40,000 bases of DNA. Source: Candidatus Altimarinota bacterium. GTDB lineage: Bacteria; Patescibacteriota; Gracilibacteria; UBA4473. Below, piece by piece: positions 8,053 to 29,878 of this stretch (positions are counted from its first letter, which is position 1; each line of letters starts with the position of its first letter). The stretch lies in the NCBI GenBank assembly GCA_963677105.1, contig OY781871.1, positions 469,090-509,089 of the forward strand, written 5' to 3'. The position numbers and the translations under genes were made by a program. The notes beneath the pieces are model-generated. The model saw nothing but the letters and a program-made list of their open reading frames with translations, searched no databases and had not been told where the DNA came from.

Positions 8053-8847
8053 TCAATTCTCTCTGTGCAATAATCCAAAATCAAAAAACGGATTAAGGTT
8101 TTTTTGTCGATACTCAAATTCGATAATTTTTTCTCGCCCAGCGGCTTTCCCAATTGCTCGCACATGTGTTTGTGCTGGTGCCATTTCTCCATTTAATGAC
8201 TTTACTTTTCCTGATATATTACCATTACCAAAATTTGTAAGAGAGATAAAACATAAGTCGTCATCTAAAAATGAACTTAAAAAATCTTGAATATTTTTAT
8301 CAACTGGTAAATCCGTTCCATTGTCCCACCCTCCTATTGATATTTCTGTTATTAGATTTCCACTTGCACGAGCCTGTAGCATTTCTGTTGTGTTCACAAG
8401 AGAATTATTACATTGGATTTTCCACTGTAAATCGCTCACTGTAGCCGGTGGATCAATATTGATTTCAAAGTCTTTAACTAATTTTTGTACCACAAGCATT
8501 TCGTCATTTGTATCAAGCCCTAATTGCCAACGAAGTATTGTTTTGGGCGGAAGGGAAAAGGGAAACTCTGTTTTTGAATTTTCTACAAACACTTCTGTAA
8601 TCGATGCATTCGGAAGAATTGTTTCGATATTTACGTAATTTATTGGCGATGTCTTCAAGGAAAGCAATGATTGTTCAACTCCTGATTCCGCTGCGAAATA
8701 AGCTCTTTCTGCAAGCAATAAATCTGCTGAAAACTGGAGTTCGTCCGAAACAATCTTGGTCAAAGCAAGTGCAAGAGAAATCAACATTCCTGAGATTATC
8801 AGTGTCGGAAGAAGAATCGTTCCATCGTTTTTCACACGAATATTCAT
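8053..8847 (-). CDS. PilX-like minor pilus component (N-terminal TM anchor)
   Basis: MNIRVKNDGTILLPTLIISGMLISLALALTKIV followed by AERAYFAAESGVEQ. It is the last gene of the pseudopilin operon, and its ATG overlaps the upstream stop (ATGA). Confidence 0.5.
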   Translation of the reverse strand: MNIRVKNDGTILLPTLIISGMLISLALALTKIVSDELQFSADLLLAERAYFAAESGVEQSLLSLKTSPINYVNIETILPNASITEVFVENSKTEFPFSLPPKTILRWQLGLDTNDEMLVVQKLVKDFEINIDPPATVSDLQWKIQCNNSLVNTTEMLQARASGNLITEISIGGWDNGTDLPVDKNIQDFLSSFLDDDLCFISLTNFGNGNISGKVKSLNGEMAPAQTHVRAIGKAAGREKIIEFEYRQKNLNPFFDFGLLHREN

Positions 8848-9335
8848 TGGATAATTCGTGAAGAAATAGTGGTACGAATTGGAATTATGATTTTGGGATC
8901 ATCTGATCTCTCGGAAACTTCCATTTCAATTGTTACGCTTGGTTGAAGATGAGATATTTCGGGATTTTGACTAACAGTAAATACTACATCTTGCACCATT
9001 AAATTTGAAGAAAATAAAGGCTCTCCATTCATTTTCAATTCTCCGGGCGTGTCATCAAATTCAAATGTATCTGCACCAATAATCGGTAAAAAATGATGAT
9101 TAATATCAGGATCAAAGTTTAAAAAATGATAATCAACCGATTGTGATCGAATACGATCGGCGACACGAGTCGTTGCAAAATTTATTTCACGCTGAATCTG
9201 ACGAGTAAGATCAAGTTGGTGTTTCATTTTACTGAGCGTCAAGAAACTTCCCATTACTGAAACAAGAATTATTCCGCCCATTGTCATCGCGACAACTAAT
9301 TCTATCAAACTGAACCCGTGTTTTCGCGCGTTCAT
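8844..9335 (-). CDS. Prepilin-type N-terminal cleavage/methylation domain protein (PilW-like minor pilin)
   Basis: MNARKHGFSLIELVVAMTMGGIILVS carries the class III signal peptide motif G-F-S-L-I-E. Confidence 0.75.
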   Translation of the reverse strand: MNARKHGFSLIELVVAMTMGGIILVSVMGSFLTLSKMKHQLDLTRQIQREINFATTRVADRIRSQSVDYHFLNFDPDINHHFLPIIGADTFEFDDTPGELKMNGEPLFSSNLMVQDVVFTVSQNPEISHLQPSVTIEMEVSERSDDPKIIIPIRTTISSRIIQ

Positions 9336-9796
9336 AATTGTTTCCAGTTAGTGAGAATTTCGTTCAGAACTAATCGCTCTGTTCCACTTCGTAATGGCCA
9401 CGAAACTGCACATTTTATCCCAATGGAGCCAGCCACAGAGGCATCCATTTCCATTTTGCGATTAAACTTAGTTGATGTTCCAAGAATTAGAATTAAATTT
9501 TCACCGTCTATCATATCTTGCACTAAGGGAAAAGCTCCTGAACAATTATTTGTAAATGCACAATCCCACGGAAGATGTTTTCTCCATGCAGAATCACGAG
9601 CGTTTCTCGCTAATTCTAAACATTCTTGTGCTAAATATGTAGCAGTAAGACGATTTTGATTTCGTTCTACAGCCGTTGCCGCAGACCAAATAAGAGAAGT
9701 CGCTCCCGCGAGCACAACAGAAAGAATCACGATCGCAATCACTACTTCTATAAGCGCGAATCCTGAACGTTTAATTCCCATTTTGAAATGTTTCAA
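9332..9796 (-). CDS. Prepilin-type minor pilin (PilV-like)
   Basis: KRSGFALIEVVIAIVILSVVLAG. The start is either 9796 or Met6 at 9781. Confidence 0.75.
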   Translation of the reverse strand: MKHFKMGIKRSGFALIEVVIAIVILSVVLAGATSLIWSAATAVERNQNRLTATYLAQECLELARNARDSAWRKHLPWDCAFTNNCSGAFPLVQDMIDGENLILILGTSTKFNRKMEMDASVAGSIGIKCAVSWPLRSGTERLVLNEILTNWKQL

Positions 9797-10220
9797 TTAA
9801 TCCTGAAGCACGATGTATCTCCGTTTTTGTTGAATAATTTTTTCCATTCAGTTCAATTTCTGTTGGAGGGAGAATTCCGTCTAAATCAATGTCTCCATAA
9901 GGCGGAAGAAAGGTTATAAAAAAATCTGAATCAAGAGTAACTCCTCTCTCTAGTTCTTGAAAACGAGAATTTCCTCCTTCGTAAACAATTGATAATTTTC
10001 GACTATTTTCGACTCCTGAAACCGTGACTGTTTCTGGATGAGAACGAGCATAAGAAAAAGCTTGCCCAAGTGTTGTTTCTAGAATTTGCTGAGAATATTT
10101 GAGTCGAGAAGAATCAAAATATTCTGAAAAAATTGGCGCAGATATTGTCGCAAAAAAACCAACCAATGCTATCACAACAATAAGCTCAATGGCCGTGAAA
10201 CCAGCAGAACGATTCTTCAT
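9771..10220 (-). CDS. Prepilin-type minor pilin (GspH/FimT-like)
   Basis: MKNRSAGFTAIELIVVIALVGFFATISAPIF. Confidence 0.75.
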   Translation of the reverse strand: MKNRSAGFTAIELIVVIALVGFFATISAPIFSEYFDSSRLKYSQQILETTLGQAFSYARSHPETVTVSGVENSRKLSIVYEGGNSRFQELERGVTLDSDFFITFLPPYGDIDLDGILPPTEIELNGKNYSTKTEIHRASGLIETFQNGN

Positions 10221-11359
10221 CCTGCAAAAAGTGATTGCATTTGAAAAATTGGTGTCATGATCGCCATCGCGAGAAATACAACAGCAATTCCTACAAATAT
10301 AACAATAATTGGCTCCACTAATTGTGTGAGATTTCTTAATTGAGAATCCACTTCCGCTTCATATTGATCTCCAATTTGAGTAAATACTTCCGACAGAGAT
10401 CCTGTTTTTTCTCCGATTTCTATCATCTCTGCAAGAACTGGATCTAGTATTTCTTGTTCCGCGAACGCCTCATGGAGCAACATTCCATGTATCACATTCC
10501 TTTCAATCGAAAGAATTGCATCTCTTTGGCAAGGAGATCGCAAAATGTCGTACAATACGCGAAGCGATTTCTCCAAAGGAAGTCCTGCTGAAAGCATTGC
10601 TCCCACATTATGCGCTAAATGAACCGTATTTATATTTCGAATAAGAATTCCTATACGTGGCAAGGAATGAATCCATCGATCCCATGTACGACTTCCATTT
10701 TCAGAATGAATCCAATTCTGAAAAATAAGCCATGTAGCAACTGCTAGGACAAATACGAGCCACCAATAATTTTGAAAAAAATCTGATGAGCCAATAAGAA
10801 CCCTCGTTGATATCGGTAATTCTGAACCAAAATCTGCAAACATCGTTTCAAATTTCGGAACGACAAACAGCATTACTACAACAATGGCAAGAACGATTAC
10901 ACAAAATACTATTATCGGATACATCAACGCTGATTTTACTCGTTGATTTAGCTCAATATTTTTCTGCACTTGTTCAGCAATATTGTCTAACACTTCTTCT
11001 AATTGCCCGGAAAGCTCTCCCGAATAAATCATACGAACTTCTGCTCTCGGAAACACTTTTGGATGTTTTGCCATTGCCTGTGACAACGTTGATCCATGGT
11101 GAATTATATCGTGTTCGATAGTGTCCAAAACTCTCTGGAGTCGCAGATTCTGTGTCCGCCGAGACAACATTCTAACTGCATTCGTAATGGGAACTCCTGA
11201 TTTTACCAATAAACGAAGTGAATTAAAAAACAAAGATCGTTCTTTGTTTGTTATTGCGGAATTATTAACCAAAAAATCATTCACCTTTTCAAACAAGGAG
11301 AGACTTGATCGATCAGTTACGCCATAAATGACCTGTTCATGATTTATGTGTCTTTTCAT
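10217..11359 (-). CDS. pilC: Type IV pilus platform protein (GspF/PilC family)
   Basis: 380 aa with two T2SSF repeats and three TM segments. C-terminus VEPIIVIFVGIAVVFLAMAIMTPIFQM. Confidence 0.88.
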   Translation of the reverse strand: MKRHINHEQVIYGVTDRSSLSLFEKVNDFLVNNSAITNKERSLFFNSLRLLVKSGVPITNAVRMLSRRTQNLRLQRVLDTIEHDIIHHGSTLSQAMAKHPKVFPRAEVRMIYSGELSGQLEEVLDNIAEQVQKNIELNQRVKSALMYPIIVFCVIVLAIVVVMLFVVPKFETMFADFGSELPISTRVLIGSSDFFQNYWWLVFVLAVATWLIFQNWIHSENGSRTWDRWIHSLPRIGILIRNINTVHLAHNVGAMLSAGLPLEKSLRVLYDILRSPCQRDAILSIERNVIHGMLLHEAFAEQEILDPVLAEMIEIGEKTGSLSEVFTQIGDQYEAEVDSQLRNLTQLVEPIIVIFVGIAVVFLAMAIMTPIFQMQSLFAG

Positions 11360-11853
11360 CCCTCAATAAAAAAAGCATAAAGTGAAATATTCATTTCTGT
11401 ACGAGGAATTGGCAGCGAGGAATCTGTGATAAAGGAAAGTCCGTTTGTTCCCATAAACCGTGGATTATTTTCTACTTCTTGAAGAAAATTTTGAATTTGT
11501 TTACGACGACCCGATAGTGGAAAACTAATACTGATTTGCTCTGCGTTCACATCCGAATTTTTCCCGATCGAAAAACTCCACGCATCAGGAAGCGTAAAAC
11601 CCGTTTTTTTTGCTATACGATTAACATCGTTGATTAGCTCTATTTGTTCAGGTTCTGTAGGAATTATTTTTCCAGTATCTGCAACCGTCTCTACCTTTTC
11701 TAGCATCGATAATCGCTCAATTTGTGATTGTTTTTGTATAAATAATTGCTTATTTTTAACTTCTCTTTCAATCGCCACCTTCCGAATTGGACCAACTCCA
11801 AATCCTGCCATTAAAACAAGTGCCACCGTAAGAATAATGTTACTTGTCTTCAT
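11356..11853 (-). CDS. PilO-like pilus assembly protein
   Basis: 165 aa with a single N-terminal TM segment, a coiled coil and a C-terminal alpha/beta region. Position is between the PilN-like gene and pilC. Confidence 0.5.
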   Translation of the reverse strand: MKTSNIILTVALVLMAGFGVGPIRKVAIEREVKNKQLFIQKQSQIERLSMLEKVETVADTGKIIPTEPEQIELINDVNRIAKKTGFTLPDAWSFSIGKNSDVNAEQISISFPLSGRRKQIQNFLQEVENNPRFMGTNGLSFITDSSLPIPRTEMNISLYAFFIEG

Positions 11854-12379
11854 TATGGTTTGGGAAAAAATTAAATGTCAATTCTGCCGATTGCTTTGCT
11901 CCTGCTACTGGCGGAGAAAGTATTGAAGTACTAGCAATTCGAATATTACTCACTCGAGAATCTTTTTTTAACGAATCAATAAATACCGATAAACTCTTCC
12001 AGGAAGTCGCTTGGCAAGAAACCGACATCTTCCCTTCCGAAAAATTTACTCTTGAAAAACGCACCGCAGAAGACTCTAAATCTACAATCTGCTCCATAAT
12101 ATTCGACCAATTTGTTCTAAATTTTTCTGCATTCCTTGCTACTTCTTTTTGTCTTTTAACCAATGACTCTGTTCCTGGTGCAAGAGCTTGAAGACGTTTT
12201 TGTGTGTTTTCAATAGAAACTTCAAACCTTTGATTTTCCTTCTCTAATCTCCATGATTTCAATCCATAAAATCCCATTACTACAACAACTATTGCCGCAG
12301 CGAAACTCCAGACGATCCAAAATCGTCGATTAGACTCGTGTTTTTTTTGTATTTGTTCTTGCTCCATGGCACTTTTCAT
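11840..12379 (-). CDS. PilN-like fimbrial assembly protein
   Basis: Short cytoplasmic N-terminus, TM segment FWIVWSFAAAIVVVVMGFYGL, a coiled coil and a ferredoxin-like C-terminus. The start is ambiguous (12379 or 12367). Confidence 0.5.
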   Translation of the reverse strand: MKSAMEQEQIQKKHESNRRFWIVWSFAAAIVVVVMGFYGLKSWRLEKENQRFEVSIENTQKRLQALAPGTESLVKRQKEVARNAEKFRTNWSNIMEQIVDLESSAVRFSRVNFSEGKMSVSCQATSWKSLSVFIDSLKKDSRVSNIRIASTSILSPPVAGAKQSAELTFNFFPNHNEDK

Positions 12380-12425
12380 TGTACGGTCGGCAAGACAATT
12401 TCTCAACTTTTTTTACCCTAAAATA

Positions 12426-13034
12426 ATGCAACTTTGGAGCGCTGATAATGCGGCACTGATAATAACTCGGGCAATTTTATGTCGAGAACCAAAAATTTCT
12501 CTACAAATCTTTCTCGGTGGAGCTTGTCCCAAAGATGCTGTTTCTGTTCCTGATATATGGGAAATAGCTATCGACAGTTTAAAATTGAAATATAAAAGAC
12601 TTGGAGTTGCTTTCGATCAAGCAAATCATGAGGAGAATGAGTTTTTACAAAATGCTTGCAATTTTTCGCTTCCTATCAAATACGAACTCCTTTCTGATTT
12701 CGCAAATCGTCAATTAGCGGACACCGTTGAATTTCGCAGACTTGCAAGAAAATATCTTCGACCCGCAAAACACGCACACTGTGATGCTGTTCTGTTTTTA
12801 TCTGGAACATTGGCTGAAGAATCGTCTCGCAAAATACTTGCAAAAACGCTTGGAACACAGATAAAATCATTTTTATTGACCGACTTTTTACCGAAAAGTT
12901 GGCTTGTCGCAGAAAAGAAACAACATATTGAAATTTTTGCCAATAACAACCTCGAACAGGTGCGAAAAGAGGCGGAAATTTTATTACACAAAAAAATCAC
13001 AAAAGACTGCGTACAACTTCGGAAACAAGATTAA
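12426..13034 (+). CDS. Hypothetical protein; possible degenerate Asp/Glu racemase (MurI-like)
   Basis: NACNFSLP resembles the first racemase motif (ACNTAS). CDAVLFLSGTLAEESSRKIL resembles the second (D.lvLGCTHYP), but with Ser in place of the catalytic Cys. Confidence 0.3.
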   Translation: MQLWSADNAALIITRAILCREPKISLQIFLGGACPKDAVSVPDIWEIAIDSLKLKYKRLGVAFDQANHEENEFLQNACNFSLPIKYELLSDFANRQLADTVEFRRLARKYLRPAKHAHCDAVLFLSGTLAEESSRKILAKTLGTQIKSFLLTDFLPKSWLVAEKKQHIEIFANNNLEQVRKEAEILLHKKITKDCVQLRKQD

Positions 13035-13049
13035 ACCATTGCATAAAAT

Positions 13050-13493
13050 ATGGAAGAAACACTAATCCAGTTGGGATACATAGGACTGTTTACGGCATCT
13101 TTTCTTGCTGCTACGTTGCTGCCGCTTTCTTCTGAAATATTCGTCATATTAATGATTGTTTCAGGACGTAATGCAGTACTTATTTGGTTTGTCGCGTTAA
13201 TGGGAAATTATCTCGGCGCATCAACAAATTATCTTGTCGGAAAATATGGCGATGATTTTATTTTATCTAAATATATCAAATATGGTCCGAAGAAGAAAAA
13301 AGTCGAAGATTTATATAAAAAGTATGGATCTCCACTATTATTATTTTCGTGGTTGCCGGTAATTGGTGATCCATTGTGTCTCATTCCTGGAATCTTTCAT
13401 CTGGATTTTCACATTTTTTCATTCTGGGTAATTCTCGGAAAAGCTATACGTTATTTTGTGGTTATAAAAGCGGTGGAAATTATTGCGTTCTAA
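13050..13493 (+). CDS. YqaA/DedA-family membrane protein
   Basis: LGYIGLFTASFLAATLLPLSSEIFV, NYLVGKYG and LLLFSWLPVIGDPLCLIPG. Confidence 0.7.
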   Translation: MEETLIQLGYIGLFTASFLAATLLPLSSEIFVILMIVSGRNAVLIWFVALMGNYLGASTNYLVGKYGDDFILSKYIKYGPKKKKVEDLYKKYGSPLLLFSWLPVIGDPLCLIPGIFHLDFHIFSFWVILGKAIRYFVVIKAVEIIAF

Positions 13494-13505
13494 CGAAATA
13501 AAGAA

Positions 13506-13534
13506 TTGAAAAAAGTCCGTTATTCTGATATAAT
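13506..13534 (+). promoter_or_regulatory. Strong extended -10 promoter of pilB; predicts a leaderless mRNA
   Basis: TTGAAA (13506-13511), 17-nt spacer, TGaTATAAT (13526-13534), then 6 nt to the ATG at 13541. Confidence 0.65.
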
Positions 13535-13540
13535 CACGCG

Positions 13541-15187
13541 ATGACACAGGACTTAAATGCAACCGAAGCATCTCCTCTTGAACAGGTGAATCGAGAGCTT
13601 GATGATAAAAAAGCGCGTCAACGCGCTGCTTCCTCTGGATTGCCATATGTTGATCTGCGACATTTTGATATTAATATTGATGCGCTTCGTTTGACAAAAA
13701 AAGAAGTCGTGGAGGAGGCTCATGCAATTCCTTTCGATTTATTAGGGAAAAGGGTACGGATTGCTTTTCTAGGAGAAAAATCCGTTGCAGCAGATAATCT
13801 CGCTCATTCTCTTGAAGAACAGGGTTTTGCTGTCGAATGGACAATTTGCTCTATGGCTGGATTAGAACAAGCAATGCGGGAATATGATTCACACATGTTT
13901 GTGCGACATAAAATTGAATTGCGTACTGAATCAAGAGAAACCAAAGAGCAAGAATTAACCGCTCATTTGCAAGATTTCTCAACACTAGAACCCCATCTTA
14001 AAACACTTTCTTCTGGAGAATTACTAAATGAAATTGAACTTCTTGCTGTTTCGTCTCAGGCGTCGGACGTACATTTCCAACCAGGAAGAGATGAAATGGT
14101 TGTACGAGTAAGAATTGATGGTGTATTACATGATGTATTAAAAATTCCGATTAAAATTGCTGAACAACTCGTTACTCGGATAAAATATGAAGCCGGAATG
14201 CGTGCAAATATTACTAATTCTCCACAAGATGGAGCCATTTGTTTCGAAATAAATGGAAGGAAGGTTGATCTTCGTGTTTCTACTCTTCCTACACCAACCG
14301 TTGAATCTGTCGTTTTTCGAATACTGGATTCTTCACAGGGAATTTTAACTTTTTCGGAACTCGGATTTACCCCACATGTTGAGAAAAAAATATTAACTTC
14401 TCTTCAGCGACATAGTGGAATTATACTTGTAACTGGACCAACTGGATCTGGAAAAACAACAACTTTGTATTCTATGTTGGCGGAACTCAACACGCCAGAA
14501 AAAAAATTAGTAACACTTGAAGATCCGATTGAATATCACCTAAATGGAGTATCTCAATCACAAGTTGATGAAAACAGTAACTATACATTTGATTCTGGAT
14601 TCAAATCATTGCTCCGACAAGATCCTGATGTGATTTTAGTGGGAGAGATTCGTACATTAGAAACAGCAAAACTCGCCTTTGAAGCAGCATTAACTGGACA
14701 TACTGTGTTGTCGTCTTTACATTCAAACTCCGCTGTTGGTGCCATTTCCCGTTTGCGGAATCTTGGGGTTAAAGATGTGAATACTGCGCCAACAATTTCT
14801 GCAATATTTGCTCAACGATTGGTCCGTCGAGTCTGTAAAAAATGCTGCAAACAAGAAGTAGCAAAAGACAATGATCGTGTAAACTCTGCAATAGAACGAT
14901 TACAAAAAATTCTTCCCGAACAGAAAATTCCAAACACTGTTTCCGTTGCAGAAGGATGTAAAGATTGTTCTTTCACCGGATATTCAGGACAAATAGCAAT
15001 AAGCGAAACTTTCGTGGTAGACGATATTCTTCGTGAAATGATTTTGAACGGTGTTTTTGAAACAGAAATGCTAGAACATCTACGTAAAAACACAGACTAT
15101 GTTTCTCTTTGGGAAGACGGTGTGTTGAAAGTTTTGGAAGGTATTACCACGTTAGACGAAATTGAACGTGTCGTTGGAATGTCTTAG
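13541..15187 (+). CDS. pilB: Type IV pilus assembly ATPase (GspE/PilB family)
   Basis: T2SSE_N domain, Walker A GPTGSGKTTT, and the tetracysteine cluster CKKCC...CKDCSFTGYSG. Confidence 0.9.
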   Translation: MTQDLNATEASPLEQVNRELDDKKARQRAASSGLPYVDLRHFDINIDALRLTKKEVVEEAHAIPFDLLGKRVRIAFLGEKSVAADNLAHSLEEQGFAVEWTICSMAGLEQAMREYDSHMFVRHKIELRTESRETKEQELTAHLQDFSTLEPHLKTLSSGELLNEIELLAVSSQASDVHFQPGRDEMVVRVRIDGVLHDVLKIPIKIAEQLVTRIKYEAGMRANITNSPQDGAICFEINGRKVDLRVSTLPTPTVESVVFRILDSSQGILTFSELGFTPHVEKKILTSLQRHSGIILVTGPTGSGKTTTLYSMLAELNTPEKKLVTLEDPIEYHLNGVSQSQVDENSNYTFDSGFKSLLRQDPDVILVGEIRTLETAKLAFEAALTGHTVLSSLHSNSAVGAISRLRNLGVKDVNTAPTISAIFAQRLVRRVCKKCCKQEVAKDNDRVNSAIERLQKILPEQKIPNTVSVAEGCKDCSFTGYSGQIAISETFVVDDILREMILNGVFETEMLEHLRKNTDYVSLWEDGVLKVLEGITTLDEIERVVGMS

Positions 15188-22757: not shown

Positions 22758-22790
22758 AAAAAAAACACCCCCGAAGGGGTGTTTTTATTT
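22758..22790. terminator. Bidirectional rho-independent terminator (glyA / giant minus-strand gene)
   Basis: A-run, CACCCC-CGAA-GGGGTG stem-loop (22766-22781), then TTTTTATTT. Confidence 0.85.
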
Positions 22791-22816: not shown

Positions 22817-25800
22817 TTAGTTACATAATGGTTGTGGCGTAAACATTCCACAAGTTCCGGCAGAAGGAGGCGTAAAGGATCCTGCTGGTAGATAGATTAA
22901 GTGTTTATCGGTCTGTAGGTTCTGCATTCCCGTGAGAGCATTGACTCCTTTCATTACATTCGCATTCCCGTCAACAATTGCAGAAACTTTGTTATTATCA
23001 TTAATTGTACATTCTTCAATTATTACTGGTTTTTCTGTTTCAGAACAATATTTATCAGCAACTATCCCTCCTAAACTACTTGAACAACTCACTTTGCGGG
23101 CCCTATATAACACTGGTGAAGCCAATGAAGCACTCGTCAAGGCTGTTTCAACTGTACTTAATTCAATTCCTGTCGAAGACATAAATCCTCCTCCCGATAC
23201 TCCTACGTCTCGACTTGCAACGGAAGTGGCATGACTAATATCATCAATCAGTGCTACTGCTTCTATCGCAGCAATTTGCTCAAGTCTTTCGTCCACCGTC
23301 ATTGGAGTTCCTTCTACTATATCTATCAATGAAGCCCTTGAAAGAGAACTCGATAATCCTGCTGCAGTTAAAACTTGTTCCTTTTTCTGTGTCAAATTTG
23401 TAACTGCTGCTGCTGCTGACTGTTGAACTGATTTCTCTGCTGCTATTACGTTCGCTACTCGTTGATTATTTCCACAATTTCCCCATTCTCCTACTTCCCA
23501 GTCATATGTAACCTTTGTTAGTGTACAGTCTTCTACGCTCGCTGGACGAGCACTGACCGAACTACTAAGTTTGTCTGTACAGAATGAATCTTCTACCACT
23601 TTCCCTGTATTTATGTGTACACAGTCCACGTCTCGTGTTCGAATAGGGATTTTGTTTTTGGCTACTGAGGAATAGAGTGTTGCACCACTTCTTGCTGAAG
23701 AAGATGTCACTAGATACGCCTCCTTTATTTGTGCTGAAATCTCTTCTATATCTTCCTTCACTTTTAGTGCCGCTTTTTCTAATCCTGTTCTTCTCTTTGA
23801 TAACACTGGAGTAGTTGTACTCACTGCTATATTATTTTTTGCTGTCTCAAGTTTCGTGTATTTTTTCTCGAGTTTTTGCTTCACTATTTCTATAGAAGAA
23901 TCTGCATCAGGTCCACATGGACTCCATTTTCCCAATCTCCATTCATAGTCATCCTCAAGTTCACACTCCATCATAGACACTGGTCTTGATGAACTAAATG
24001 TTGTGAGCTCATTACTGCTTTCACAGAAAGAATCTTCTACGATTTTTTTATCTGAACGCTGACAACTTACGTCTCTGTATTTATATGGCAATCCACCATC
24101 ATTCACTTCTTGGTTCACTATTGATACAGCTTCACTAAAAGTAAGTGTAGATTTTGTTGCATCTGTTATCGTCGTCGTATCAGGACTTCCACTAATCGCT
24201 ATTTTCTCATATTTTCTCGCTTTTTTTGCATTAATTGCCTTTGTATATTTTCGAAATTTAGCATTTACTCGAGCTTGAACACGAGCTGTCTCATCGCTTG
24301 AAGCAGAAATCGAAATCACTGCATCTGACGGACTTGACCAAGATGGCAATGATGAAAAGTTCTCGTTTGCCTGTGCCACGAACTTCGCCCGTGCAGATTC
24401 TAATTTTGCAATCTCTTCATCTGCTGTTTCTTTTTCTTTCTCTCTTCTTGAAACATATAATTTCACGCTTTCTGGTTTTCCTGCACAGTCGCTCCAATCA
24501 CCAGTAATCCATGAATATGTATATTTCACTTCATTGTCATACAATTTACATGTTTGACTCGATTTCGGTCGCTCTGTTCCCGCACAATACACCTCTGATT
24601 GAAGTGATCCAAATTCACTAAGACAAAGTACGCTTCTAAACTGAATTCCTACTGGAACTGAAACAGCTTCCTCCACTGAAATATCACTATCCACTAAAGC
24701 GTTTATTGCAAGCACCACATCTTCTTTCACTTTATTTTTCAATGACACTGCTTTCGTCAAGCTTTCACTGCTGCTAGACAACGTACTTCCAGCTCCTGAA
24801 GTATAATATGTCACCATTTGTTCTGCTGCACGTAACTCTTTTTCTAAGTCCTCTACTTTTTCATTAAGATCAACTTTTTCTGCTCCACACGGTCCCCATC
24901 GTCCTACGCTCCATGTTCCTGGGATGCTTACGAGTGGATCTTCTGCTCCGAAAATGTTTCCTGTTTTCATTGATTGCACTCCCGCTCCGAGCTCGTTCAC
25001 AGCGTAAACAAAGATATCATATTTCTTTCCCGCTTCTGGCTTTGGCGTACCTGTTACGTCCCATGTATATGCTCCTTCTCCTTCTGCTACGTCAAAACAT
25101 GTTGTCCCCAAAGATTCTCCTTGCACACACACTTTGTAGGTACTAATTGTACCGTATCCTTTTTGAGCTTCTGTACTCAAGTCTGTCCAAGTAACTGTAA
25201 ATCCATTTGCTTGAGACTCAATCGCTAAATCTGCTGGTGCCAATGGAATAGTCACAAAATTCAAGTTCAAAAGATTTCCTTCTTTATACAAATCTCCTGT
25301 GAAGTTAATATTTCCTCTTATGTCCAATGCTTCTGTTGGAACGGTTGTCGGAAGAAGGTTTATTCCTACCTTTGATGTTCCCGCTAATGAGTCAGCTAGC
25401 CGAACTGTCGGCGCTGTAACCGAAATTTTTGTGTTCGCCCCTGGTAGCCCTGCCAATGTTGCAATATTAATATCTCCCGTTGAATCATTCTGAATTAATA
25501 TATCTTTATCTAGTCCTCCAGCAATTTTCATGCTTAAGTCTTCGCTTAATGAAGAAATGTCTAACTGCTCACTCTGAGAACTCAATATTATCTTTCCTGA
25601 ATTCCTGCTTAACACCTCTGCTCCATCATCTCCCATTCGAATTGTATTGTTCCCAACATGAAGATCCTCTACCCAAAGATTTCCAAACCATTTATCTGCG
25701 GCCCCAATATTTCGAGTAGAAATAACTCCCGTCGCTCCTGTCATATTTGGCAATATGTCTGAAGTAACATCTGTAAGATCTGCTCCACTTCCACCTGATA

Positions 25801-26179
25801 TATCCGTTCCACAGGTAAATACTCCCGAAGCATCAACTGCCTGAAGTTGTTCTCCTGATGCACATGTCAGAGCCGTAACCCCTGAACCACCTGCCGGCCA
25901 AGCTGTTATACAGTCTGTATTTATACAAAATTCTGGCGCAGTTAATTTTGTAACAGATGTATCATTTAAATCTAATCCTGTAATTTTCCCGCTTCCATCA
26001 ATATCTACTCCTGTAAATACTTCTGTTACCTCGTTTATCGCAGACGTTATATCGTTAAACTCGTACGCAGAAACGGGGTCACTTGCTGATTTTTCTGGAA
26101 AATTGAGGGAACTAATCTGAGCACTCGCGTTGCTCATTATAAGTACCCCGACGAGGCCGAGAAGAAGCGTTTTTTTCAT
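22817..26179 (-). CDS. Giant secreted protein: signal peptide, fibre-like N-terminal region, FN3 domain, four split thrombospondin-type-1-like Cys modules
   Basis: Signal peptide MKKTLLLGLVGVLIMSNASAQ (start trimmed to 26179). FN3-like region at aa 321-415 of the track ORF (nt 24962-25246). Four repeats of Y-x-W-x-x-G-x-W-S/G-x-C-G ... R-x-V-x-C ... C ... (R/K)-P ... C (nt 23009-24916). Confidence 0.8.
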   Translation of the reverse strand: MKKTLLLGLVGVLIMSNASAQISSLNFPEKSASDPVSAYEFNDITSAINEVTEVFTGVDIDGSGKITGLDLNDTSVTKLTAPEFCINTDCITAWPAGGSGVTALTCASGEQLQAVDASGVFTCGTDISGGSGADLTDVTSDILPNMTGATGVISTRNIGAADKWFGNLWVEDLHVGNNTIRMGDDGAEVLSRNSGKIILSSQSEQLDISSLSEDLSMKIAGGLDKDILIQNDSTGDINIATLAGLPGANTKISVTAPTVRLADSLAGTSKVGINLLPTTVPTEALDIRGNINFTGDLYKEGNLLNLNFVTIPLAPADLAIESQANGFTVTWTDLSTEAQKGYGTISTYKVCVQGESLGTTCFDVAEGEGAYTWDVTGTPKPEAGKKYDIFVYAVNELGAGVQSMKTGNIFGAEDPLVSIPGTWSVGRWGPCGAEKVDLNEKVEDLEKELRAAEQMVTYYTSGAGSTLSSSSESLTKAVSLKNKVKEDVVLAINALVDSDISVEEAVSVPVGIQFRSVLCLSEFGSLQSEVYCAGTERPKSSQTCKLYDNEVKYTYSWITGDWSDCAGKPESVKLYVSRREKEKETADEEIAKLESARAKFVAQANENFSSLPSWSSPSDAVISISASSDETARVQARVNAKFRKYTKAINAKKARKYEKIAISGSPDTTTITDATKSTLTFSEAVSIVNQEVNDGGLPYKYRDVSCQRSDKKIVEDSFCESSNELTTFSSSRPVSMMECELEDDYEWRLGKWSPCGPDADSSIEIVKQKLEKKYTKLETAKNNIAVSTTTPVLSKRRTGLEKAALKVKEDIEEISAQIKEAYLVTSSSARSGATLYSSVAKNKIPIRTRDVDCVHINTGKVVEDSFCTDKLSSSVSARPASVEDCTLTKVTYDWEVGEWGNCGNNQRVANVIAAEKSVQQSAAAAVTNLTQKKEQVLTAAGLSSSLSRASLIDIVEGTPMTVDERLEQIAAIEAVALIDDISHATSVASRDVGVSGGGFMSSTGIELSTVETALTSASLASPVLYRARKVSCSSSLGGIVADKYCSETEKPVIIEECTINDNNKVSAIVDGNANVMKGVNALTGMQNLQTDKHLIYLPAGSFTPPSAGTCGMFTPQPLCN

Positions 26180-26196
26180 GTGTGTTTGTGTGAAAA

Positions 26197-26205
26197 ATTG
26201 TATCA
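26197..26205 (-). promoter_or_regulatory. Extended -10 promoter element for the giant minus-strand gene
   Basis: The minus strand reads TGaTACAAT. It is 17 nt upstream of the ATG at 26179, and the short leader is CA-rich (CACACAAACACAC). Confidence 0.4.
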
Positions 26206-26671
26206 ATATCTATTTTTTCACGCATTGAGAAAAAAGCCAAACTTTTTTTGGACGTAAAATTTTCTCTCTCCCCATCAAAATGGGAACTCAGTCCTATTTA
26301 TATTTGACTTTTTTGTGCTTTTAGTCTATTCTACAAGTGTTCCTTGGCTACTTTTACAAAAGATCGTCAAGGATGATCTTTGATATATCAGAATTTAGAA
26401 AAAATAAGCTTTTATCTTTGGTGGCTATAAGCCACTTTTCACACCATTATATCGCTGTTTTTTCCGAATCGAGCAGCTGCTTCATTTCTTCTCCTTTTGT
26501 CATTGTGGACTTGCTCCACAATCCATCTTTAAAAAATTAAATTCAGGATGAAAAGCCGAAAGTGACGCGCCTTCTCGATTCGGAACGGTAGCCTTTCCTC
26601 TACCAATCGCCAAGTCGATGATTCCGTAAGTAAGAAAAAACAAAAAAAATAGAATCCCAAAGGAGGGACCA

Positions 26672-29600
26672 ATGTTTTCTACAAAAAAAGGGATTGTGGT
26701 CATCCTTATAATGACCATCGCTGTTTTGGCTTTCGGCCAGAACATGGAATACGAAAATCATGGAACAATGACTGTTGGCGGAGGATCATATCTTCGTCAT
26801 AATTGGGTACAATTACCCAATGGTGACAACTACGTTCGCTGCACAACCAATGGCGTGTCAACAAATGTTGAGTTATATGCCGGATGGACATTAACGTTTA
26901 ATGGCGTTACAAATCCATGTATGGCGGAAGACGATGGCACAATTTATTGCGCTGTTAGTCAATATGACGCAACCACAATTGGCGGAGTCACATATCCTGA
27001 TCCTCCAAACAATGAATCACGAGTTATTCTCGTGAAAATTAGTTCAAGCGGATCTGTCTTAGATTCATGGATCACTTCTGACCATGGATTTGAGCTGAAG
27101 AATATCGCAACGAATGGCTCCGAGATAGCACTTGTTGGACACGCTGACCCATCATTAGAACACCTCTCCTCCCCAATCGGCGGAGGCGTTGTTCTCATCC
27201 ATGATGGAAACAACTGGGATCCCACGAAGGGTTTCTATATTGAAACCCCTGCTAATGGATTTCGTCCGGTTGTCACCGATGTTCAATTTCTCTCAAATGG
27301 AAATTTGGCCTTAAGTGGGGAATGGACAGGCGGAACACTGTCTTTCGGCGGACTTTCTCGTTCTCCTATCGGAGGAGAGGATATGTTTCGTGGAGAAATT
27401 AGCACCGCTGGTGTTGGTATTTCCGTTGTTAACTCTGGTGGTCTTAGTGGTGATTTCGATAATATCTCTATCACCAATGCAAATGGTGATTATATGATCA
27501 CTGGGCTGTATTGTAGCTCTACATCACTAACTACGTTCTATAACGCAGACGAATCGGTTGGAGGAACTATTGATGTTCATCCTGTTGGCAACTCACATGA
27601 TCAAATGTATTTTGCATTCTATGACGCTTCTGGCGTATTGCAGAATGTAGAGTATGTATACAACTCCAACGAAGATCTACGTAATGTAGACGTCGCTTGT
27701 AGCGACGGATACTTTTACGCCATGATTAGCAATGAAAATGGGGGAACTGTAGTAACTCCAACGGAAAGTCACTCTCAGCTAGCTCCTATAATGCTTAAGT
27801 TTGATTCTGTGGGAACTCCCATATGGTCAAAGCAGTATGAGGGAACCTCTGCTCAATACGGAGAAGAAATTCTCGTGAGCGGAGATATCGTGACCATTTG
27901 TGGTCTTGAGTACGGAACATCCGATCTCGATTTCGATGTCAACAACGTAGTCAATGTGTCCAATACTAGCTATTGGGCTCGTTACTTCGACGGCGTCGTA
28001 GTTGGACCAACCGCAGATTTCGTTGGAACTCCAACCACAATCGTGGAAGGAGAAAGTGTTTCCTTTACGGATTTATCCGGAACTGGAACAAATCCAATCA
28101 CTTCTCGCTACTGGACATTTGGAGACGATGGAACTTCTAGTTCTACTAATCCAACCAATACTTATGATGATCCCGGAATATACACAGTTTCTTTAACTGT
28201 TTCCGACGGCGACCTATCAGACACTGAAACGAAAACTGCGTATATCACTGTGATTGCGCAAACTTTGTCATTAACTCCAACATCAGAAGATGTTACTGCT
28301 GCGGCTGGTTCTACCAGCTTTACAGTTTCATCCAACGGTGGATGGAACGCAGAGGAAGCCTGTGGCTGGGCTACAATCGCCCCCGCCTCCGGAAACGGAA
28401 ATGGAAGCATTGCGGTCAACTATCAGGAAAATACAACAACGGTTAGCCGAAGTTGTGTTGTAACTGTAACAGCTGACAACGGTCTTGAGGAAGTGTTTAC
28501 ACTGACTCAAGCTGGAGCAACTCCTGTGTTGGTTTTTGATCCTACAACAACGAATGTTTCAACTGTTGCTGGGAACGCTGTTTCTGTCTTGAGTACTAAC
28601 GAGGCTTCTGCTTCATTAGTTATCTCAGGATCAGGTGCTGCTGTAAATCCAACAACCGTTGTAACTGGTGACACAAATGTAACGGTTTCATATCCAGCGA
28701 ATCTGGACATGGCAACTCGATCGTTTGTTGTAACCGCCACATCAAGTCCTCACGGACTTGTTGAAACGTTTACCGTTGATCAAACTGGTGTTGATGCGTT
28801 TATCGTATTGACCCCAGATAACGCGAACGTTCCAGCTTCTGCTGGTTCTGTAAACGTTACGATTGATTGCCCGGGCGACCTTGCTTGGACAATTGATGGA
28901 TTGGCTGATTGGATAACCGTTGACGAGTTAACCGGAACAGGACCTCAAGATATCTTGATTTCCTACGAAGAGAATGAAGAAGAAACTCCACGTTCAGACG
29001 ACTTCACTGTCGCTGGATCCGGGGAAACTGCAATGTTTTCTCTGAGTCAAGTAGCAGCAAACGCTCCTTTGAGCGGAACTGCAACTGCGTCTCCAGATGA
29101 AATATCTGTTGGTGCGGAAATTCAGCTGTCAGCCCAGGGAACTGGCGGAACTGGGAATTATTCTTATTCCTGGACCTCTGTTCCTGTTGGTTTTACATCA
29201 ACAGAACAGAGCCCGACAGCCACTCCTGTAATTCATACAACGTACTCTTGCGACATTTTTGATGGCGAAGATGCGTTTGTAGCAGAAGTTGACGTAATTG
29301 TTCATCCACTTCCTGTGGTTGATTTTTACGCCGACGACGTAACTCCAACTGTTGGTCAGGTAGTGCAGTTCACTGCTGACATTACTTTCCCTTCTGGAGC
29401 ACTTGGTGTTTCCACTTACGAATGGGACTTCGATGATCCCACAGGTGAAAATGGCGGATTCTCCAATGAGGAAAATCCAGGCTACGCATTTGCCGAAGAT
29501 GGGAGCCACGACGTGAAGTTGACCATCTGGTTAACGGACGGGACAGTTACTTGGGAACAGAAGATTGATTACATCACTATCACCGTTGGTGTTGATGATG

Positions 29601-29878
29601 AACATGTGACTCCGGTCACAACTTCACTCTCGAACTATCCCAATCCGTTCAACCCAACTACTACAATTCGTCTTCAGGCGAATGCAAACGTGGAATGGAA
29701 ATCCCTTGGCGTTTATAACATCAAGGGACAGTTGGTTAAATCTATAGATGTGGACCGTTTACGCGGAACACAAAACATAGAGATAAAAATGGACGAGAAT
29801 GCTTCTGGGGTATATTTCATGCGTGCTACTACGTATGATGGAAAGAATATGCTTCACAAAATTTCTCTTTTGAAATGA
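26672..29878 (+). CDS. Giant secreted protein: SBBP-like propeller region, 2 PKD domains, 3 BACON-like Ig modules, T9SS-type (type A) C-terminal sorting domain
   Basis: Signal peptide MFSTKKGIVVILIMTIAVLAFGQN and a strong SD AAGGAGG. PKD domains at about 28000-28255 and 29300-29590 (WTFGDDGTSS, YEWDFDD). BACON-like modules at 28261-29050. C-terminal domain at about 29620-29875 (NYPNPFNPTTTIRL...GVYFMRATTYDGKNMLHKISLLK). Confidence 0.8.
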   Translation: MFSTKKGIVVILIMTIAVLAFGQNMEYENHGTMTVGGGSYLRHNWVQLPNGDNYVRCTTNGVSTNVELYAGWTLTFNGVTNPCMAEDDGTIYCAVSQYDATTIGGVTYPDPPNNESRVILVKISSSGSVLDSWITSDHGFELKNIATNGSEIALVGHADPSLEHLSSPIGGGVVLIHDGNNWDPTKGFYIETPANGFRPVVTDVQFLSNGNLALSGEWTGGTLSFGGLSRSPIGGEDMFRGEISTAGVGISVVNSGGLSGDFDNISITNANGDYMITGLYCSSTSLTTFYNADESVGGTIDVHPVGNSHDQMYFAFYDASGVLQNVEYVYNSNEDLRNVDVACSDGYFYAMISNENGGTVVTPTESHSQLAPIMLKFDSVGTPIWSKQYEGTSAQYGEEILVSGDIVTICGLEYGTSDLDFDVNNVVNVSNTSYWARYFDGVVVGPTADFVGTPTTIVEGESVSFTDLSGTGTNPITSRYWTFGDDGTSSSTNPTNTYDDPGIYTVSLTVSDGDLSDTETKTAYITVIAQTLSLTPTSEDVTAAAGSTSFTVSSNGGWNAEEACGWATIAPASGNGNGSIAVNYQENTTTVSRSCVVTVTADNGLEEVFTLTQAGATPVLVFDPTTTNVSTVAGNAVSVLSTNEASASLVISGSGAAVNPTTVVTGDTNVTVSYPANLDMATRSFVVTATSSPHGLVETFTVDQTGVDAFIVLTPDNANVPASAGSVNVTIDCPGDLAWTIDGLADWITVDELTGTGPQDILISYEENEEETPRSDDFTVAGSGETAMFSLSQVAANAPLSGTATASPDEISVGAEIQLSAQGTGGTGNYSYSWTSVPVGFTSTEQSPTATPVIHTTYSCDIFDGEDAFVAEVDVIVHPLPVVDFYADDVTPTVGQVVQFTADITFPSGALGVSTYEWDFDDPTGENGGFSNEENPGYAFAEDGSHDVKLTIWLTDGTVTWEQKIDYITITVGVDDEHVTPVTTSLSNYPNPFNPTTTIRLQANANVEWKSLGVYNIKGQLVKSIDVDRLRGTQNIEIKMDENASGVYFMRATTYDGKNMLHKISLLK

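Follow-up and report, generated by a model that had tools for sequence, protein, structure and literature searches.

A putative bacterial surface protein with thrombospondin type 1-like repeats split by long, predicted helical inserts

We analyzed a 40,000-nucleotide (nt) window of contig OY781871.1 (positions 469,090 to 509,089; Candidatus Altimarinota bacterium, assembly GCA_963677105.1), in which a long open reading frame (ORF) on the minus strand encodes a putative surface protein with four cysteine-containing modules. Each module consists of an N-half with the motif W-x-x-G-x-W-x-x-C and a C-half with the motif R-x-V-x-C...C...C, and very probably represents one TSR (thrombospondin type 1 repeat) whose strand A is separated from its strands B and C by an insert longer than the repeat itself. 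The two motifs occur four times each and alternate strictly along the ORF. In a six-frame scan of the window, the patterns W..G.W..C and R.V.C-x(8-16)-C-x(8-22)-C each had four matches, all inside this ORF, compared to chance expectations of 0.0003 and 0.0025 matches, respectively (20,000 protein shuffles). Every module has exactly four cysteines, and the inserts have a high content of S, A, K, E, and T. The modules are laid out as follows, with amino acids (aa) counted from the TTG start codon of the ORF and predictions taken from AlphaFold 2 (AF2) models, for which the predicted local distance difference test (pLDDT) is given.

24884..24916, minus strand: module 1 N-half (TSR strand A), TWSVGRWGPCG, aa 431-441; 12.8 bits alone in an independent hidden Markov model (HMM); AF2 strand, pLDDT ~90
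24641..24883, minus strand: insert 1, aa 442-522, 81 aa; antiparallel hairpin of two helices predicted
24542..24640, minus strand: module 1 C-half (TSR strands B and C), FRSVLC...YC...TCKL, aa 523-555; 30.6 bits alone; AF2 pLDDT >90
24479..24517, minus strand: module 2 N-half, YSWITGDWSDCAG, aa 564-576; motif and HMM
24080..24478, minus strand: insert 2, aa 577-709, 133 aa; charged helix, then S/T/A-rich and K-rich segments, as read from the sequence
23957..24079, minus strand: module 2 C-half, YRDVSC...FC...ECEL, aa 710-750; motif and HMM
23912..23947, minus strand: module 3 N-half, YEWRLGKWSPCG, aa 754-765; motif, HMM, and AF2 strand
23639..23911, minus strand: insert 3, aa 766-856, 91 aa; predicted two-helix hairpin, then a low-confidence linker
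23519..23638, minus strand: module 3 C-half, TRDVDC...FC...DCTL, aa 857-896; motif, HMM, and AF2
23471..23506, minus strand: module 4 N-half, YDWEVGEWGNCG, aa 901-912; motif, HMM, and AF2
23102..23470, minus strand: insert 4, aa 913-1035, 123 aa; helical bundle predicted, with about four helices
23003..23101, minus strand: module 4 C-half, ARKVSC...YC...ECTI, aa 1036-1068; motif, HMM, and AF2; 27.1 bits for the module without its insert, which exceeds the Pfam gathering score

The whole modules span nt 24542-24916, 23957-24517, 23519-23947, and 23003-23506. A preliminary description of the locus, made from the DNA letters and translated ORFs, had recognized this bipartite pattern, and all eight half-peptides that it quoted are present in the order it gave, as N-half, insert, and C-half. 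Its module coordinates are exact at the upper ends, whereas the lower ends fall at the last cysteine codon and miss the final 6 nt of the peptides that it quoted, and each of its insert lengths (about 82, 134, 92, and 124 aa) is one residue too long.

Profile matches to Pfam, to an independent HMM, and to THSD7A show the two halves to be homologues of strand A and strands B/C in TSRs with the ADAMTS/THSD7A-type pattern W-x-x-G-x-W / G-x-Q-x-R-x-V-x-C. The Pfam model TSP1_ADAMTS (PF19030) scores the whole protein at 35.3 bits (gathering score, 23.8; E = 1.4e-8) in four stretches that cover model positions 16-52, i.e., the C-halves only. Once the inserts are deleted, modules 1 to 4 score 23.1, 19.3, 21.0, and 27.1 bits and are aligned with positions 1 to about 51 of the 55 in the model. 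The independent HMM was built from 194 TSR units of unrelated hits, separate from Pfam and from the split family described below, and aligned each insert-deleted module as one full-length unit (41.4, 37.3, 45.4, and 42.1 bits); it also recognized the N-halves alone (12.8 to 16.4 bits) and the C-halves alone (23.0 to 33.5 bits), with 100 shuffled sequences reaching at most 7.4 bits. Further, a profile of the ten insert-deleted modules of the family matched human THSD7A (8oxr_A) with an E-value of 4.2e-13, spanning domain d1 end to end (30.9 bits) and splitting on domain d2 into two pieces that flank d2's own extended A-B loop. The strand A motif W..G.W..C is found in four of four query modules and ten of ten family modules, and R-x-V-x-C in strand B is invariant, with one arginine per strand as in the ADAMTS/THSD7A type. 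The TSR reading of the preliminary description is borne out by these matches, albeit through a different Pfam family: TSP_1 (PF00090), which it had proposed to search, gave no match to the whole protein or to the insert-deleted modules even at E up to 10, yet does match canonical bacterial TSR arrays, such as the ORF in locus L002, and the match is to the ADAMTS-type PF19030 instead. A complete lack of TSP_1-like scores for the insert-deleted modules, which it had named as speaking against TSRs, was not seen, given 19.3 to 27.1 bits with PF19030 and 37 to 45 bits with the independent HMM.

The canonical units among the database hits have six cysteines (C1 to C6), whereas the query modules lack C2, located in the CSxTCG turn, and C6; with four cysteines, they do not show the six-cysteine, three-disulfide pattern (C1-C5, C2-C6, and C3-C4) used as a criterion for TSRs. 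These two cysteines are lost together. Among 198 unsplit TSR units from the hits, 174 have both and 17 have neither, 7 have C2 alone (mostly parsing edge cases), and none has C6 alone (Fisher p = 2e-19 for joint loss), while all eight split units of the family lack both. The paired absence fits a C2-C6 disulfide, which is named in the THSD7A structure paper (bioRxiv 10.1101/2023.05.03.539264), and would leave C1-C5 and C3-C4 in place. Compact, unsplit four-cysteine TSRs, e.g., CSASGTQVRTVTC, are found in P0003, P0022, P0030, and one unit of P0014, and those of P0003 score 247.6 bits on PF19030 over 10 repeats, or about 25 bits each. Because such units exist and PF19030 scores them strongly, the four-cysteine state appears to predate the split; on sequence grounds, it is a pre-existing compact subtype and not a product of the split, and the missing C2 and C6 mark that subtype without barring membership in the TSR family. 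The split modules look like this four-cysteine subtype with something inserted in its 6- to 7-residue A-B loop.

What sets the query modules apart is that they are not contiguous domains of about 50 to 60 residues with a tight A-B turn. The distance from C1 to the arginine of strand B is 83 to 136 aa in the eight split units compared to 6 to 13 aa in about 198 other TSR units, and the insertion site falls after C1 and before the G-x-Q-x-R that leads into strand B. AF2 models were built for module 1 and for modules 3 and 4 in a two-module construct, which was used in place of a four-module alignment that misplaced canonical arrays; they cover inserts 1, 3, and 4. The models reached pLDDT values of 81.8 (module 1) and 78.5 (two-module construct), with the TSR halves at about 85 to 96 and most of each of the three inserts predicted to be helical at 75 to 89. 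Predicted helices occupy aa 447-470 and 479-506 of insert 1, model residues 22-42 and 50-90 of insert 3 (where pLDDT falls below 50 at residues 83-101), and model residues 164-198, 207-215, 221-247, and 266-274 of insert 4. In Foldseek searches of the PDB, the top match of both models was the THSD7A TSR didomain (probabilities of 1.00 and 0.84), which was also their sole high-probability match, and for the two-module model this alignment crosses an insert, with 222 columns on a 127-residue target. The structure prediction that the preliminary description had suggested as a check thus yields confident TSR halves around helical inserts and returns a TSR structure. Its low-complexity loops are not borne out, as inserts 1, 3, and 4 are predicted to be folded helical hairpins or bundles.

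An M-x-x-Y-Y-x-x-G-x-G motif (aa 464-473) in insert 1 is invariant and maps to the tip of its predicted hairpin. MAFFT aligned the "TSG" of its YYTSGAGS with the canonical TCGxG turn, but we rejected the idea of a relic of that turn because the prediction puts the motif at the far end of the hairpin, well away from the TSR core. The insert-1 hairpin is similar in shape to the antiparallel coiled-coil hairpins of PKN1 HR1b (4nkg_D/1urf), the hantavirus N coiled coil, and FadA (3etx), with target-normalized TM-scores of 0.6 to 0.8 over about 60 to 78 residues; as the E-values exceed 1 and the sequences are unrelated, only the shapes are comparable, and family membership is not implied. A scan of viral contigs and a BFVD fold search returned no relatives, only generic helical hairpins.

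An exhaustive phmmer search with aa 425-1075 against 1.84 billion representative sequences gave 31 hits in all at E up to 0.001, 28 of which are ordinary TSR arrays with C1-to-R distances of 6 to 13 residues. The best stretches align a C-half, the linker, and the next N-half with such ordinary arrays (E down to 1e-21), as would be expected of tandem TSRs, and the closest clearly non-family match of the four-cysteine subtype is P0003 (E = 1.9e-21). True relatives among the hits are P0004 (786 aa) and P0005 (1,078 aa), which have the same signal peptide and stalk as the query and contain two split modules each (gaps of 108 to 133 aa) plus an unsplit one (gap of 8 to 9 aa, WSACSAGVPKTRTRSVRC). 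P0005 is located in a Candidatus Peribacteria metagenome-assembled genome (MAG; locus L001, CAZGJL010000001.1) and is followed in tandem by a fourth member, complete in the metagenome locus L004 (1,021 aa); these, the two relatives placed on contigs, form a tandem pair of paralogues in a Candidatus Peribacteria genome. The split family therefore comprises four proteins, i.e., the query, P0004, P0005 (L001a), and L004b, and, apart from the query, the split was found in the latter three only, each with two split modules and one unsplit module. The query shares with them (i) the signal peptide and stalk, (ii) at least two modules split at the same position, and (iii) an upstream DNA element, and differs from them in having four split and no unsplit modules and a fibronectin type III (FN3)-like segment in place of cysteine-rich repeats. 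These repeats, of about 45 aa with the pattern C..Y.YH.C....L.WFDSC......K.DC..LGGC, occur in two or three copies between the stalk and the TSR modules of the relatives (L004 2685-6371 and 7285-10350; P0004 aa ~200-310), and may correspond to the "Myxococcus cysteine-rich repeat"-like proteins of Peribacteria (PMC4736985).

Across the four diverged proteins, both halves keep the same W, C, R, and P residues in all ten modules without exception. Within-family identity is 45 to 75% for the N-halves, 22 to 55% for the C-halves, and 15 to 42% for the inserts. The check that the preliminary description had proposed for homologues came out in its favor: the W- and R-halves are co-conserved, alternate strictly in every one of them, and are better conserved than the sequences between them. 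Insert 1 is orthologous across the family (z of 6.8 to 10.6 versus shuffles), and insert 3 of the query resembles the insert-1 type of P0004 (z of 5.1). For inserts 2 and 4, no pairwise similarity to their counterparts was detected (z below 3.2 for insert 2); insert lengths are nonetheless kept per position, e.g., 124 to 133 aa for insert 2. A word-indexed homologue search with the full protein recovered only the protein itself, and the same search with its N-terminal half found nothing, not even itself; with the family alignment, the sole addition was P0032, which has the stalk without TSRs.

The same residues could be parsed differently, as beads on a string in which a C-half of one module, the linker, and the N-half of the next form a disulfide domain of about 57 aa, each N-half pairing with the preceding C-half and the inserts serving as spacers. 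The best stretches of the exhaustive search are contiguous pieces of precisely this kind (positions 94-152 and 430-488 of the search query), with four cysteines each, but contiguity of this sort is also seen in canonical tandem TSR arrays, where the N-half is plainly part of the next repeat. This parsing is very improbable: all family members start with an N-half, end with a C-half, and have equal numbers of the two, which would leave two orphan halves, and strand A would presumably run in the reverse direction relative to the TSR fold. The insert-deleted modules, in turn, align as single end-to-end TSRs, and the AF2 model of a single module shows the N-half as a confident strand. It is also unlikely that the protein is a degenerate relic, that is, a TSR array broken by flexible, S/T/A-rich, and possibly glycosylated linkers, whose halves no longer reassemble and which persists as a largely disordered, mucin-like polymer. 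The composition of the inserts, the low AF2 confidence of some parts (residues 83-101 and 254-260 of model 2), and the undetectable pairwise similarity of inserts 2 and 4 to their counterparts are in line with such decay; the invariant residues in ten modules, the conserved length at each insert position, the conservation of insert 1 (z up to 10.6) with its invariant tip motif, and the predominantly helical prediction for inserts 1, 3, and 4 (pLDDT of 75 to 89) are not.

Finally, TSRs are overwhelmingly eukaryotic, and the top hits P0002, P0006, and P0009, with their CUB-like C termini, look eukaryotic as well, which raises the question of an artefact, either a chance cysteine pattern or a eukaryotic TSR fragment misassembled into a bacterial contig. 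The probability of either is negligible. The chance expectation is 0.0003 to 0.0025; the gene is flanked by glyA/trmB on one side and by bacterial surface-protein genes on the other, in a contig of 962 kb, and has a bacterial signal peptide and an intrinsic terminator; relatives that share its upstream DNA element sit in tandem in the Candidatus Peribacteria MAG; and canonical TSR arrays occur in other bacterial genomes.

Several points weigh against our own reading of an adhesin built from split TSRs. Three of the four insert-deleted modules (1 to 3) fall just under the Pfam gathering score if scored singly, and one arginine per strand B and two tryptophans per strand A would leave only a minimal CWR (Cys-Trp-Arg) stack. 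The AF2 input alignments included canonical TSRs, so that the models are biased toward the TSR fold, and the Foldseek E-values for THSD7A are weak (0.047 and 0.17). The family is small, with only two or three organisms traceable, which limits the statistical power of co-conservation. No anchor to the cell was found in the protein, and adhesion, a ligand, and the oligomeric state are properties that we only infer. With these points considered, we still hold the structural identity of the modules as split TSRs to be very probable.

Beyond the modules, the gene and its flanks contain the following features.

22817..26206, minus strand: whole ORF, stop codon included; 1,129 aa counted from the TTG start
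26117..26179, minus strand: Sec-type signal peptide, MKKTLLLGLVGVLIMSNASA/Q, aa 10-30; direct reading and hydropathy scan
25241..26116, minus strand: N-terminal stalk region, aa 31-322; common to P0004, P0005, and the TSR-less P0032
24971..25240, minus strand: weak FN3-like segment, aa 323-412; PF00041 at 14.4 bits versus a cutoff of 25
22820..23002, minus strand: C-terminal tail, aa 1069-1129, with a final cysteine pair (C1119 and C1128)
22761..22786, both strands: bidirectional intrinsic terminator with an 11-bp GC-rich stem and T-runs on both strands, shared by the convergent glyA and TSR genes
26180..26260, minus strand: upstream leader or promoter element of about 80 nt, with a TCAAT-N16-ATTGA inverted repeat core at 26203-26230

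The true start codon is probably the ATG at 26179 (MKKTLLLGL..., 1,120 aa), to judge from an in-frame stop just upstream of the listed TTG and from the 80 nt upstream, which behave as a conserved noncoding leader; the product from this ATG is identical to database protein P0001 (1,120 aa). The signal peptide is the sole hydrophobic segment of the protein in a hydropathy scan and is conserved in P0004, P0032, and the L004 genes. The N-terminal 420 aa have no match in Pfam (except for the subthreshold fn3), NCBIfam, PHROGs, or the PDB. A phage tail fiber or spike identity for the stalk was rejected, with no PHROGs, NCBIfam, or PDB match; a Phage_spike trace appeared in P0005 only, at 20.8 bits and below the threshold of 28.2. 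The query stalk has one copy (aa 94-135, nt ~25802-25927) of a small disulfide-loop motif, T-C-x2-G-x-Q-L-x-x-V-x3-G-x-F-T-C-x-T-D, which is present in several copies in P0005/L004a (L004 2685-6371), apparently as a repeatable stalk unit. The tail contains neither a transmembrane segment nor a sorting signal, and its terminal P-P...C-G...C pattern is also seen in P0004. Across 24001-26000, the 5' two-thirds of the gene, GC skew (-0.25) and AT skew (-0.17) are strongly negative, because the coding strand of this S/T/A/E/K/G-rich protein is purine rich; this is not a replication feature.

The neighboring genes encode bacterial housekeeping functions (an aspartyl/lysyl-type tRNA synthetase, purH, rmuC, rny, trmB, glyA, purL, metG, lexA, and recA), and scans of the window for tRNAs and Rfam families found nothing. 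A cluster resembling type IV pilus or type II secretion system (T2SS) loci occupies 8053-15187, with T2SSF at 10217-11359, the T2SSE ATPase at 13541-15187, and small ORFs of about 150 to 190 aa at 8844-10220 and 11356-12406 that may be pilins; the cluster bears on cell-cell attachment if the organism is an episymbiont. On the other side of the TSR gene, at 26672-29878 on the plus strand, lies a gene for a 1,068-aa PKD/BACON protein with a C-terminal Por_Secre_tail sorting domain of the type IX secretion system (T9SS) type, a tail that would be unexpected if the organism belongs to the candidate phyla radiation (CPR). A PKD and Por_Secre_tail gene also adjoins P0032 in locus L013 (8643-11540, minus strand), and this repeated adjacency suggests that the two surface proteins may work together.

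Upstream of the ATG, a CA-rich tract, CACACAAACACAC, abuts the start codon with no obvious Shine-Dalgarno sequence. The ~80-nt element is near-identical in the query gene and both Peribacteria paralogues, although their proteins are only 22 to 30% identical, and conservation stops abruptly upstream of it. Its copies in the relatives lie at L004 2665-2688 and 7239-7262 and at L001 3692-3715 and 8266-8289; the window has a single copy, and in L013, a weaker form is found ahead of the P0032 gene. No RNA structure was supported for the leader (-1.5 kcal/mol, no covariation), which makes a shared promoter or operator the more likely interpretation of this conserved DNA.

TSRs as such are not foreign to bacteria. 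We found canonical six-cysteine TSR arrays in genuine bacterial genomes, namely in Pseudobdellovibrionaceae and Phycisphaeraceae MAGs, so that the rarity presumed in the preliminary description holds in the sense that bacterial TSRs are uncommon, but not absent. In the Pseudobdellovibrionaceae MAG, the array (L002 5818-7569) is fused to a vWA domain, and in the Phycisphaeraceae MAG (L003 5527-7443), eight TSRs are combined with dockerin-like C-terminal repeats; an exchange of TSRs between eukaryotes and predatory or planctomycete bacteria is possible. Our literature searches turned up neither a nested or split TSR nor a report of TSRs in CPR bacteria, in agreement with the earlier supposition that a split TSR had not been described. 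Only the nested insert is therefore new, whereas a TSR in a bacterium is uncommon but already known.

Compared to ADAMTS-type TSRs (PF19030), the query modules share W-x-x-G-x-W-x-x-C in strand A, G-x-Q-x-R-x-V-x-C in strand B, V-x-D-x-x-C, and K/R-P...C; they differ in lacking the CSxTCGxG turn, C2, C6, and the eukaryotic O-fucosylation site (C-x-x-S/T-C-x-x-G), in the 81- to 133-aa helical insert in the A-B loop, and in their bacterial host. The best solved relative by both sequence and fold is the d1/d2 didomain of THSD7A (PDB 8OXR), which shares with the query W-(K/R)-x-G-P-W and the "GGIQTR" that leads into strand B. The A-B loop of d2 is extended and disordered in the crystal (bioRxiv 10.1101/2023.05.03.539264); unlike the query, THSD7A keeps six cysteines, and its loop extension is shorter than 20 residues and unstructured. 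Coiled-coil inserts in THSD7A TSRs were considered but not borne out, as reviews give a coiled coil for NELL1 only and the 8OXR paper reports only the disordered d2 loop. The compact four-cysteine arrays (P0003, with pAdhesive_15; P0022; P0030; and one unit of P0014) have the same C1, C3, C4, and C5 but form contiguous domains with an A-B loop of 6 to 7 residues. Functional loop insertions have a precedent in properdin, with a 6-residue insertion in the A-B loop of TSR5 and a 22-residue one in TSR6, both being "stirrups" that touch C3b (PMC6736995); these are a loop and a beta-hairpin (the latter in the B-C loop), respectively, and neither is a nested helical domain.

Taken together, our data argue that the protein is likely an exported, fibrous surface protein with TSR cores and nested helical arms, probably an adhesin. 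It would form a Sec-exported, non-membrane fiber with a signal peptide, a stalk of about 290 aa, an FN3-like segment, four tandem TSRs, and a cysteine-pair tail. In each TSR, the A-B turn, CSxTCGxG in canonical repeats, would be replaced by the 81- to 133-aa insert, folded into a helical hairpin or bundle as predicted for inserts 1, 3, and 4; strand A would pair again with strands B and C despite the intervening insert, with C1-C5 and C3-C4 as staples. The TSR cores would then make up a disulfide-stiffened rod with a helical arm extending from the C-terminal tip of each core. Because the A-B loop sits at this tip of the TSR fold, next to the following repeat, the arms would project sideways from the inter-domain junctions. 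We speculate that they are probably ligand-binding or self-association surfaces of an adhesin, since the arms evolve faster than the cores, arm 1 keeps its Tyr-Tyr/Gly-x-Gly tip, and, by analogy, the A-B stirrup of properdin contacts its ligand. Taken by itself, an adhesin function with binding arms is plausible, if not quite probable. Large, exported, cysteine-rich proteins with a proposed role in attachment have been reported in Peribacteria (PMC4736985), and the producing bacterium, probably a Peribacteria-like member of the CPR with a small genome, would attach to other cells by such a protein. The relatives in Peribacteria, the small contig, and the genes for purine synthesis and pili are all compatible with a source of this kind. 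A fuller picture is more doubtful and is offered tentatively: a two-disulfide TSR "clasp" under long antiparallel helical arms might make the protein a bottle-brush adhesin of Peribacteria-like CPR bacteria, whose hairpin tips recognize host cells, and it might be the first nested-domain TSR, a bacterial elaboration independent of the eukaryotic TSR superfamily.

If our reading is correct, a fold of about 55 residues without a hydrophobic core would tolerate insertions in its A-B loop of two to three times its own size, which would widen TSR plasticity beyond the properdin precedents of 6 and 22 residues and provide a natural scaffold design, in which a disulfide-stapled base displays a helical hairpin. 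Our analysis also draws attention to a rarely noted set of bacterial TSRs, consisting of canonical, compact four-cysteine, and split forms. Although the very small size of the family gives it a narrow biological reach, it offers a concrete candidate for a protein of cell-cell attachment, along with a conserved, putative promoter element, in the Peribacteria-like CPR group, whose attachment mechanisms are largely unknown.

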